A stretch of 64,000 bases of DNA. Source: Eledone cirrhosa (lineage: Eukaryota). Both the position numbers and the translations under genes were made by a program. The notes beneath the pieces are model-generated. The model made no database searches, was not told the DNA's origin, and saw only the letters and a program-made list of their open reading frames with translations. Every line of letters starts with the position of its first letter. The first letter of the stretch is position 1. Below, piece by piece: positions 43,231-45,707 of this stretch. The stretch lies in assembly GCA_964016885.1 (NCBI GenBank), contig OZ024740.1, positions 325,190,001 to 325,254,000 of the forward strand, written 5' to 3'.

Positions 43231-43510
43231 TATAATCACAAACATACTTTTAATAGATCCGATAAAAAATTTTATACATCACTTTCACATCTAATTTGAT
43301 ACTTAAAAGACAATAATATTGACTATTCAATCTCTAGGGAACGATTTCGAAAGCGCCAGCATACCGAAATATGGCTCACTCAAGAATTTGTCATTTGTGT
43401 TTTGAAGAAATATTTAATATACTTACCAGCCAAAACTCTATTAACAAAAAGAAAGAATTATTCAGTTCTTGTAGACATCGCCAAAGAATGATTATCAGAA
43501 GTATCTTAAT
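43231..43510 (+). pseudogene. C-terminal remnant of a Penelope-like GIY-YIG endonuclease region
   Basis: Hand translation: YNHKHTFNRSDKKFYTSLSHLI*YLKDNNIDYSISRE, frameshift, ISKAPAYRNMAHSRICHLCFEEIFNILTSQNSINKKKELFSSCRHRQR; resembles the NH..SF..ELSK.IW.LK..C.LC.EK..LNK..E..CRH ending of some PLE ORFs (from memory). Confidence 0.75.
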
Positions 43511-44557
43511 CTATATATCTATATAATTTATATGTCTTCACTATGTTTTGTCGAAATTTTGCAGTGATTTTTAAATGATATTTTTCTTTTTATCTAATAT
43601 TTTTTCAAATGATATTCTTTTTAATACTTTTCAATGATATTTTGAAATATATCTTTTTTGTGATAATTTTGCTAATGTTTCTAAATATACTTATGATGTC
43701 TGTAATAATATTGTTTCACTATATAGAATTTAACATATGCATTGATGTGGATAATATTATCTAAATACATATATAAAAGAATGCTCATATTTGAAAACAT
43801 CTAATATAAAATACCTTATAATCATATACAAAATAATATATTAAATTTTTCTACTTATATTCCGCATATATCTTAATTATATATTTCTTTAAAAGTAAAT
43901 TCTAGAATTAAATGACAAATGTAACATAATTATTTTAACTAAGAAACATTGGAATTATCTTTTCCTTTATAATATAACACGCTTAAACATTCCTTCTACG
44001 TAAAAACTTTACATAAATATTTATTTTAGTTTAGTTGACTTAATAATTTTTTTGTGAATGTTTCCTATCTTGATTGAACTATCTGAATGTACAAAATAAT
44101 CTTCTCAAATAAAATTTATAACTACGTCCTTTTCTTAACTATATATTGAAAATGTAAACACAACATTCTTCGTAACCCTTAACATATATAAAAATATTTA
44201 ATTTATCTATCAAGTGAAAATAACAACATAAAATAACACCAAAAATATTTATATAAATACTTATATAAATAACCCGTTGTAATATAATAAACTAAAATAT
44301 ACTTAAAACCTTAAAATATACTATAAGTATATTTTAAGGTTGTAAGTATATAATATTATAACTCATGATTTGAATAGATCCAATAATTTGTTGCATATCT
44401 CAATTTTTTTTTATTTCTAATTGGTATTCTACCACTTTAACACATTCTTAACTCTCATATTATTTTATAGATACTACCAAAATATATGATTATTTAATTA
44501 AATAATTAAATATAATTATATCACTCTCTTTACACCATCACTGATATGATCCATACA

Positions 44558-44773
44558 ATTTTATCTTAATAATTGTTTCTACTTTTGGCACAAGGCCAGC
44601 AATTTACCAGTACATCACTGGTACTTTATTATATCGACCCCATAAGGAAGAAAGGCAACGTTAACCTCGACGGGATTTGAACTGAGACCTTAAAGGGACG
44701 TAACTATGCTAGAAAGCATGACTTCCAACCCTCTTCCAGTACTGTCAATTCACCGCCATTTTATCTTAATAAT
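44558..44773 (-). mobile_element. SINE family A with 16-bp TSD
   Basis: TSD ATTTTATCTTAATAAT (44558-44573, 44758-44773). Confidence 0.9.
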
Positions 44774-45071
44774 AATAGTGTATTTCTAACTATAATTTTT
44801 TCTTATAATCATTCCTTAAATTTCTTACACACTAATATTAATATTAGCCTCTCTTTTTTTCTTTCTTCTTCCATGTATAAATTATCCTAATAATTATTTA
44901 AATTTACCTAGCGTCTAAATATAACGATCTTTTTTCAGCCTTACGTTTCAACCTCATTTACATATTCATCCTAAAGATTTGAAATTTTCTTTCACTATCC
45001 AAACTGAACCTGAACCTGAACCGATAAGGTCTGGTTTCTTGGGTAGGTCACCATTTATAAAACAGATTTTG

Positions 45072-45132
45072 TATTTTATCTGATGAGAGCGTACCAAAAT
45101 GTTGGTACCCTTGAAATATATATAATAAAATA
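45072..45132 (+). ncRNA. Minimal type I hammerhead ribozyme
   Basis: TATTTTAT-CTGATGA(45080)-gagcGTACCAA aatg TTGGTACcctt-GAAA(45113)-TATATA-TA-ATAAAATA. Confidence 0.8.
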
Positions 45133-45273
45133 AATATAGTTTTATAAAGATAGTTTCCATTTATTAATATCATTGATATTATACTCCAGAAACTCTGTAG
45201 AGTGCTTCGAATCTGTTATAAATAAATATATAAATACAATTGTTAAATAACCAACAAATTAAATACCTCTTTG

Positions 45274-45707
<434 letters not shown>

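Follow-up and report, generated by a model that had tools for sequence, protein, structure and literature searches.

A likely single 5'-truncated Hydra-clade Penelope-like insertion with an extended AT-rich 3' UTR and a conserved terminal hairpin in Eledone cirrhosa

The closest described relatives of the locus analysed here are the Penelope-like elements (PLEs) of the Hydra clade, published in 2021 (PMC8557442), in which one ORF encodes both a telomerase-like RT, marked by RWK and DKT motifs, and a C-terminal endonuclease (EN). In this clade CxxC and CxH motifs flank the conserved E and N of the EN, the GIY-YIG core has no CCHH finger, the linker has the form CxCx5C, a canonical type I hammerhead lies near the 3' end in the sense strand, and insertion occurs in (TA)n (PMC8557442). 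The elements are generally shorter than 3 kb, which is a descriptive and not a diagnostic property; the consensi measure 1398–3045 bp among the File S1 rows listed, and the distance from the stop codon to the hammerhead is about 52–177 nt in four of them counted by hand (PMC8557442). One family, Hydra-1_Obim from Octopus bimaculoides, belongs to this clade and also targets (TA)n (PMC8557442), and in O. vulgaris PLEs account for 6.83% of the genome (PMC13282606, supplement). A member of another clade, Poseidon_Ac (PAc) from Anolis (Frangieh et al. 2024, PMC11167929), is the source of the mechanistic background: its RT starts in vitro at two internal RNA sites, the interval between which corresponds to the tail present on some ends; its protein, predicted to be a dimer, cuts both strands of AT-rich DNA, and both target strands are extended. 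PAc requires RNA located 3' of the RT start sites, while cleavage by its pLTR hammerhead is not needed for insertion (PMC11167929). Type I hammerheads are also found in the non-LTR retrozymes, head-to-tail tandem units without an ORF, for which mobilisation by PLEs has been proposed (PMC7229834; bioRxiv 10.64898/2026.07.22.740005).

The window, i.e. the whole analysed 64-kb stretch of E. cirrhosa DNA, shares with the Hydra clade a C-terminal EN in which CxxC and CxH enclose E and N, the sense-strand 3' type I hammerhead and the (TA)n target. These features are arranged at 43234–45275 and its flanks as follows:

43223..43234, no strand: left target microsatellite (TA)6 and 5'-truncation junction, from the sequence; the Hydra profile match begins at 43234
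43234..43337, plus strand: piece 1 of the EN remnant, the helical region that follows the catalytic Arg (profile, tblastn)
43338..43526, plus strand: piece 2 of the EN remnant, beyond a frameshift of one base near 43337 (phmmer, profile)
43527..45071, plus strand: long AT-rich 3' UTR or pseudo-LTR, measuring about 1.35 kb once the SINE is subtracted
44288..44360, no strand: strong AT-rich near-perfect inverted repeat with 35-nt arms (z = -7.08, 0/200 shuffles), covered by other copies
44574..44757, minus strand: SINE, a later insertion with a perfect 16-bp TSD (44558–44573 and 44758–44773) and many copies in the window
45072..45132, plus strand: predicted type I hammerhead, stem I 45072–45079/45125–45132 (8 bp), core 45080–45086 and 45113–45116
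45183..45206, plus strand: hairpin 1, RCTC-stem-loop-NN-GAGYRCT, 103 nt after the hammerhead core
45207..45275, plus strand: remaining 69 nt of the 3' tail, long-type end, with a small hairpin at 45240–45257
45276..45309, no strand: right target microsatellite (TA)17

The decayed reading frame is distributed over two frames: piece 1 reads NHKHTF..TSLSHLI*YLKDNNIDYSI with an in-frame stop TGA at 43297–43299, and piece 2 reads ..APAY..RICHLCFEE..INKKKELFSSCRH in the second frame, ending with a stop at 43524–43526. All the peptides quoted in the initial annotation, which was made from the letters of this DNA, were recovered over 43234–43526, and the frame does start after a short TA run, the (TA)6 at 43223–43234. 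The motifs of piece 2 are located at 43389–43400 (CxxC), 43407 (E), 43443 (N) and 43470–43478 (CxH), giving the order CHLC-x2-E ... N ... CRH, with CxxC and CxH around E and N. The phmmer search with piece 2 alone produced 24 matches at E ≤ 0.001 (best 7.4e-8), 22 of which have C-x-x-C..E..N..C-x-H in common, the other two (P0005 and P0007) looking spurious. Seven of these matches were aligned with piece 2 for the search which yielded 79 related metagenome loci, and an EN profile was built from the 76 loci with the EN end motif. This profile gave 45.8 bits for piece 2 and 22.9 bits for piece 1, which had been included in no earlier query, against a maximum of 7.9 bits for 1000 shuffles, and tblastn of piece 1 against the related loci resulted in an E value of 9e-7. 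A chance peptide was rejected, as were Naiad and Chlamys, in which the EN is N-terminal. By the features testable in the remnant, which also agrees by eye with Fig. S7 of PMC8557442, it is the C-terminal half of a Hydra-clade PLE endonuclease. The PLE endonuclease remnant proposed initially was confirmed in this way by phmmer, profile and tblastn matches to PLE EN relatives, and the clade could be added. Its assignment to GIY-YIG PLEs stood in part: the EN is that of a PLE, but the GIY-YIG motif itself lies outside the remnant, whose match begins at position 77 of 169 in the EN profile.

In the profile of full-length relatives the remnant corresponds to positions 622–711 of 715, followed next by the stop, and this profile had no other match within the 64-kb window and found no RT there. 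This copy is therefore dead: it lacks both the RT and the GIY-YIG core, and its EN is broken by one stop and one frameshift. Ten relatives of 707–876 aa carry YRDD and DK[TS] (10/10 each) and RW[KR] (9/10), and the linker C-x-C-x(4-7)-C-P is present in 15 out of 15 long related ORFs. The predicted structure of a full-length relative, L049 (pLDDT 82.5), had TERT or telomerase as all of its top eight Foldseek matches, and in this model the protein folds most like a telomerase RT. The matches listed for the whole relative were of the RT type and the GIY-YIG fold was not among them, so that the GIY-YIG label rests on the by-eye agreement with Fig. S7. Pfam had no match for the two EN pieces and, at E ≤ 0.1, none for the full-length Hydra-like ORFs L005, L046 and L075 (707–750 aa); there was also no match in a PDB sequence search with the profile of the relatives or in a word-based protein search among 11 candidates, and from 50 pattern matches in viral contigs none was confirmed. 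With Pfam blank even for full-length relatives, families with a long UTR may be split or missed in repeat annotation.

The order hammerhead, hairpin and (TA)n given by the initial annotation holds for the 3' terminus (45072–45132, 45183–45206 and 45276–45309), and the insertion is enclosed by (TA)6 on the left and (TA)17 on the right. The hammerhead has the core CTGATGA/GAAA, a palindromic helix III at 45116–45123 and a predicted cut after 45124, as deduced from the pairing, and its layout is the same as in File S2 of PMC8557442. Judged by sequence, 45072–45132 is a predicted ribozyme of the canonical type I form, located in the sense strand close to the 3' end. Dimeric cleavage has been described for metazoan type I hammerhead motifs (PMC4209133), and the self-complementary helix III fits this mode. 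Rfam gave no gathering-level match in the window, the 45072 hammerhead not being scored, and in an E-value scan of 44700–46500 only a hammerhead at 46335–46408 was matched (E 0.008), with nothing for the 45072 hammerhead or the hairpin; a sequence-only HMM of related hammerheads gave the former just 3.3 bits. Hammerhead core patterns occur 12 times in the window, compared to 1.57 expected. Other CTGANGA..GAAA cores are located at 3618, 11329–11353 (minus strand), 13419, 25521 and 49722 (minus strand). Unlike the tandem units of retrozymes, this locus combines an ORF remnant with one hammerhead and has no tandem array at 43234–45275, on which grounds a non-LTR retrozyme was rejected.

The spacer between the EN and the hammerhead has a GC content of 19.3% at 43509–44567 and 27% at 44761–45071, against 37.5% in the window, which together with the SINE at 44574–44757 agrees with the stretch of about 1.5 kb of AT-rich sequence with one SINE insertion seen initially. 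ORFs in the spacer do not exceed 69 aa, the sequence between the ORF end and 45072 has neither another hammerhead core nor another conserved hairpin, and neither a TSD nor a terminal inverted repeat was found at the spacer borders. A CTGAAC unit is repeated three times at 45005–45023, many other copies having one unit fewer.

The distance from CxH to the hammerhead is 1601 nt in this copy (1401 nt without the SINE), compared to 92–548 nt (median 166 nt) in the 41 related loci with a downstream hammerhead call and to a median of 160 nt over 32 families. Among the 35 loci with the EN end motif and without a hammerhead call, 19 have less than 300 nt of sequence left; where 1500 nt or more could be inspected (13 loci), the hammerhead was found within 92–229 nt in 12 and was absent in one, so that short contigs do not explain the short-UTR pattern. 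A 3' UTR far longer than in the relatives, at about eight times their median, very probably joins the EN to the hammerhead terminus of this family, in accord with the unusual length claimed initially. The published Hydra families give the same picture: the stop-to-hammerhead distance is about 1,350 nt here without the SINE, and the full length implied for this family, if it is colinear, would be about 3.8 kb, in contrast to the published values given above. The window is octopus-like by its SINEs, but the octopus family Hydra-1_Obim differs from the family described here, by eye in its EN sequence and hammerhead and also by a 3' UTR of about 126 nt (PMC8557442). The related metagenome loci had no DNA-level match to the spacer or the terminus, and two short motifs of the terminus family of the window, GAGTGCTTC (shared with this copy) and CTGATGAAGGCATACC (from the fold-back K described below), are absent from the supplement of PMC8557442. 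The clade is already known, including an octopus family differing from this one, the novelty lying in the long UTR and the twin-hairpin signal, and the family may already be present in Repbase, Dfam or the O. vulgaris library (PMC13282606). A Hydra family with a 3' UTR of about eightfold median length would mean that the terminal signals work regardless of their distance from the ORF.

The continuity of the insertion was followed in four public runs (three contig sets, X1 = X2 = X3, from one sample and one RAD library) aligned to 42900–45275 at 80% likeness. These runs contain a fraction of 0.18–0.23 of the words of 42900–45275, and the contigs therefore probably show relatives of this copy, not this locus. 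No RNA run was among those listed, which counts neither way. In the related genome every bin of 43220–44499 was covered, by 1–44 contigs at the listed sites, and at several positions the contigs were near-unanimous against this copy (1590/1602 at 43954, 629/629 at 44306 and 801/834 in X1 at 44494), indicating that the spacer is the sequence of a multi-copy family and not random AT-rich matching. Other copies are without the stop at 43297–43299 and have the extra base at the frameshift; one contig carries 28 unaligned letters upstream of 43234, and some continue upstream of 43234–43264. Among the 24 contig pieces listed of 177,515, two connect the ORF to the spacer (43367–43604, about 95 nt into the spacer), one connects the spacer to the hammerhead edge (44884–45082, its 30 letters past 45052 being one short of the bridging threshold) and several others tile the spacer, while none spans ORF end, spacer and terminus together. 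Colinearity in other copies, the check suggested with the initial annotation, was thus found piecewise, for ORF end, spacer and hammerhead edge, but in no listed piece as a whole. The depth increased from 44820 to 45139 (about 4e3, 7e3, 2.7e4 and 1e6, depth not being copy number), a rise toward the hammerhead which 5' truncation predicts, and the order and strand of ORF end, hammerhead, hairpin and (TA)n are those of the relatives.

The EN identity, the hammerhead, the hairpin, the TA flanks and the multi-copy spacer in the related genome are already demonstrated, and it is likely, with good confidence, that 43234–45275 as a whole is one dead 5'-truncated Hydra-clade PLE insertion with a 3' UTR of about 1.4 kb, placed in (TA)n and later interrupted by the SINE. 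The initial annotation had also seen a single 5'-truncated PLE, for which the EN end, the TA flanks and the multi-copy spacer speak, although no listed contig spans the stretch. An improbable alternative is a composite, formed either by an independent AT-rich repeat (e.g. a MITE- or Helitron-like one with the 44288–44360 inverted repeat) splitting a Hydra copy with a short UTR or by an unrelated short hammerhead element located downstream. It would account for a UTR length of 1401 nt against a maximum of 548 nt, for the short UTRs in every one of the 12 hammerhead-bearing related loci that offered 1500 nt or more and for the strong inverted repeat inside the spacer, and it could draw on the unbridged gaps among the 24 listed pieces (43605–43779, 43966–44003 and across the SINE), on the four of these 24 (two distinct contigs) that depart near 43470 into other sequence and on a 569-nt contig unaligned upstream of 44006. 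In turn, neither a TSD nor a terminal inverted repeat bounds the spacer, a decayed native terminus was looked for behind the ORF and not found, the depth rises smoothly toward the 3' end, and diverged copies are colinear from the ORF into about 95 nt of spacer in one case and from the spacer to the hammerhead edge in another. It is very unlikely that the family is non-autonomous, a chimera or a deletion derivative composed of EN stump, captured AT-rich DNA and terminus which another Hydra RT amplified, with no intact long-UTR element ever existing: derivatives of this kind are known among PLEs (PMC8557442; bioRxiv 10.64898/2026.07.22.740005), no RT was found in the window or physically joined to the long UTR, and the terminus is roughly thousandfold deeper than the spacer (again, depth is not copy number), but other copies without the stop and the frameshift, some of them extending upstream of 43234–43264, are as in a truncated coding family.

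The terminus of this insertion resembles those of several fold-back elements in the window:

46907..47658, no strand: sister fold-back K, with a SINE mid-element; one arm has the hairpin and tail, the other ends 2 nt before the hairpin
10554..10955, no strand: sister fold-back D; the short arm ends 5 nt before the hairpin, and the hammerhead core is mutated (GTGATAA)
8827..9345, no strand: sister fold-back A; the short arm ends 5 nt before the hairpin
46652..46878, no strand: fold-back of another Hydra-like family; the short arm ends 4 nt before the hairpin 46816–46839

Over about 210 nt the terminus of the 45072 copy is identical to K, D and A by 74, 68 and 63%, respectively, with hammerhead and hairpin aligned. 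The closeness to K and the relation to A and D reported initially therefore hold within the last 150–230 nt: the likeness ends near 45053, and when the flanking sequence upstream of K, A and D was compared with the spacer, the scores were also reached by 20–139 of 200 shuffles. With the terminus alone alike and the flanks unmatched, K, A and D represent sister families, each perhaps a short fold-back insertion, truncated at the 5' end, from a long family of its own; truncated copies of the 43234–45275 family were rejected on the grounds of 63–74% identity and upstream flanks unrelated to the spacer. The suggestion that this copy was a candidate autonomous partner of the short elements is not supported, as it is without RT, its EN is broken and the flanks of K, A and D are unlike its spacer. 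PLEs in general have a pLTR, a tandem or inverted arrangement and a tail on one end; 43234–45275 is a single arm with a tail, while the four neighbours consist of inverted arms (inverted pairs in K, A and D, not the tandem units of retrozymes) with a one-sided tail. The short arm ended 2–5 nt before the hairpin in all four fold-backs examined and the long arm comprised the hairpin plus 39–61 nt, compared to the hairpin plus 69 nt in the 43234–45275 copy. More PLE-type termini with the same conserved hairpin 45–56 nt before (TA)n are located at 9563–9755, 38560–38910 and 59290–59400 (minus strand).

In the related loci the pattern RCTC-stem-loop-NN-GAGYRCT was present 61–105 nt after the hammerhead core in 24 out of 41, against 29 of 4100 resampled controls. 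In an alignment of 27 hairpins (8 from the window and 19 from the loci) 89.5% of the cells pair and the covariation was 0.447, compared to 0.180 after shuffling; the inner stem pairs, which were outside the search pattern to which the outer stem belonged, have 11, 9 and 8 double-sided changes. The sequence comparison thus indicates a hairpin conserved with covariation across Hydra-like elements. By itself the hairpin has no exceptional stability (z -0.27), and a loose pattern for it is not enriched across the window (16 vs a mean of 10.5), so that the support comes from position and covariation. At least eight conserved hairpins of several families are present in the 64-kb window. The hairpin is visible by eye in the Amil-2, Ajap-1, Ajap-2 and Crog-1 consensi of PMC8557442 and twice at the 5' end of Hydra-1_Ajap (PMC8557442); the main text of that paper contains neither 'hairpin' nor 'stem-loop', and among the papers listed in searches of the open literature none appeared to describe it.

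The hairpin commonly occurs as a pair. Among 18 ORF starts, several of them from loci of the same family, a pair was present just upstream in 14, a single hairpin in two and none in two; the pair is located 40–130 nt before the first conserved motif of the ORF, with a spacing of 33–41 nt in 13 out of 15 pairs and of 56 nt, with a TA run between, in the other two. No twin hairpin was found for the 43234–45275 family. The partial tandems L001, L007, L010, L031, L049, L050 and L051 have the order EN end, hammerhead, twin hairpins and next ORF start, directly identifying the 3' tail as the 5' UTR of the next unit. Near-identical copies diverge 0–6 nt before hairpin 1 in five ends, and in seven copies of three families the divergence begins 28–34 nt after hairpin 1, a few bases before the expected hairpin 2; the ends were mapped from few events, with L018 (+8/+9) and L025/L026 (+45) off the pattern. 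The insertion ends fall 0–8 nt before either hairpin, which fits two RT start sites, and two such sites would explain the lopsided fold-backs. The tail so bounded by twin hairpins before the ORF is about 60 nt long in the Hydra-like relatives and 65–100 nt in the window, unlike that of Poseidon_Ac, which is 30–40 bp long and is set by RT starts within a single AC-rich stem-loop of the ORF (PMC11167929).

These data allow a tentative model, which we regard as possible with somewhat less than even confidence: the twin hairpin, with a spacing of about 38 nt among the relatives sampled, might be the docking site for both halves of a dimeric RT-EN, and each hairpin would fix one RT start 0–8 nt upstream of itself. 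The RT-EN protein of an intact copy would bind read-through (tandem) RNA at the two hairpins before the next ORF start, nick (TA)n and prime cDNA at a distance of a few bases on the 5' side of a hairpin. A start before hairpin 2 would copy hairpin 1 and give a long end, as at 43234–45275, and a start before hairpin 1 would give a short end. Synthesis of the 43234–45275 copy would have stopped early, inside the EN, leaving a plain 5'-truncated copy from one primer, while priming by both nicked strands, one per site, would leave a lopsided fold-back of the kind seen in A, D, K and at 46652–46878. Judging from the palindromic helix III, tandem transcripts are probably trimmed by a dimeric form of the hammerhead. 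If true, one twin-hairpin signal would explain both the PLE tail and the lopsided fold-backs as single two-primer events, and also the massive amplification of termini of about 230 nt with arbitrary upstream sequence, including the 1.4-kb AT-rich UTR. Its position would predict both end classes across distant invertebrate loci, making it testable by mutagenesis and a marker for Hydra termini.

Less favoured, and rather unlikely in our judgement, is that the hairpin belongs to the promoter or to the region where translation starts, or is a DNA site at which the EN of the element itself cuts, and is not an RNA signal positioning the RT. The location of the pair 40–130 nt before the first conserved motif of the ORF would suit such a function, as would the cleavage by the PAc EN of its own ORF-pLTR junction and the need of the Penelope tail for EN recognition (PMC11167929), and the outer stem belonged to the search pattern; yet the covariation of the inner stem, the two end classes each placed just 5' of one hairpin and the requirement of PAc for RNA 3' of the start sites (PMC11167929) argue for the RT-positioning signal.

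The DNA into which the PLE was inserted, 42080–43220 (minus strand), is a decayed LINE-like 3' end, which we take to be RTE-like, ending at (GAA)n and including a SINE at about 42512–42695; it had no Pfam match and its sequence is repeated in the related genome. On the other side, just after (TA)17, a short fold-back without a hammerhead core is located at 45343–45513, possibly another truncated element.
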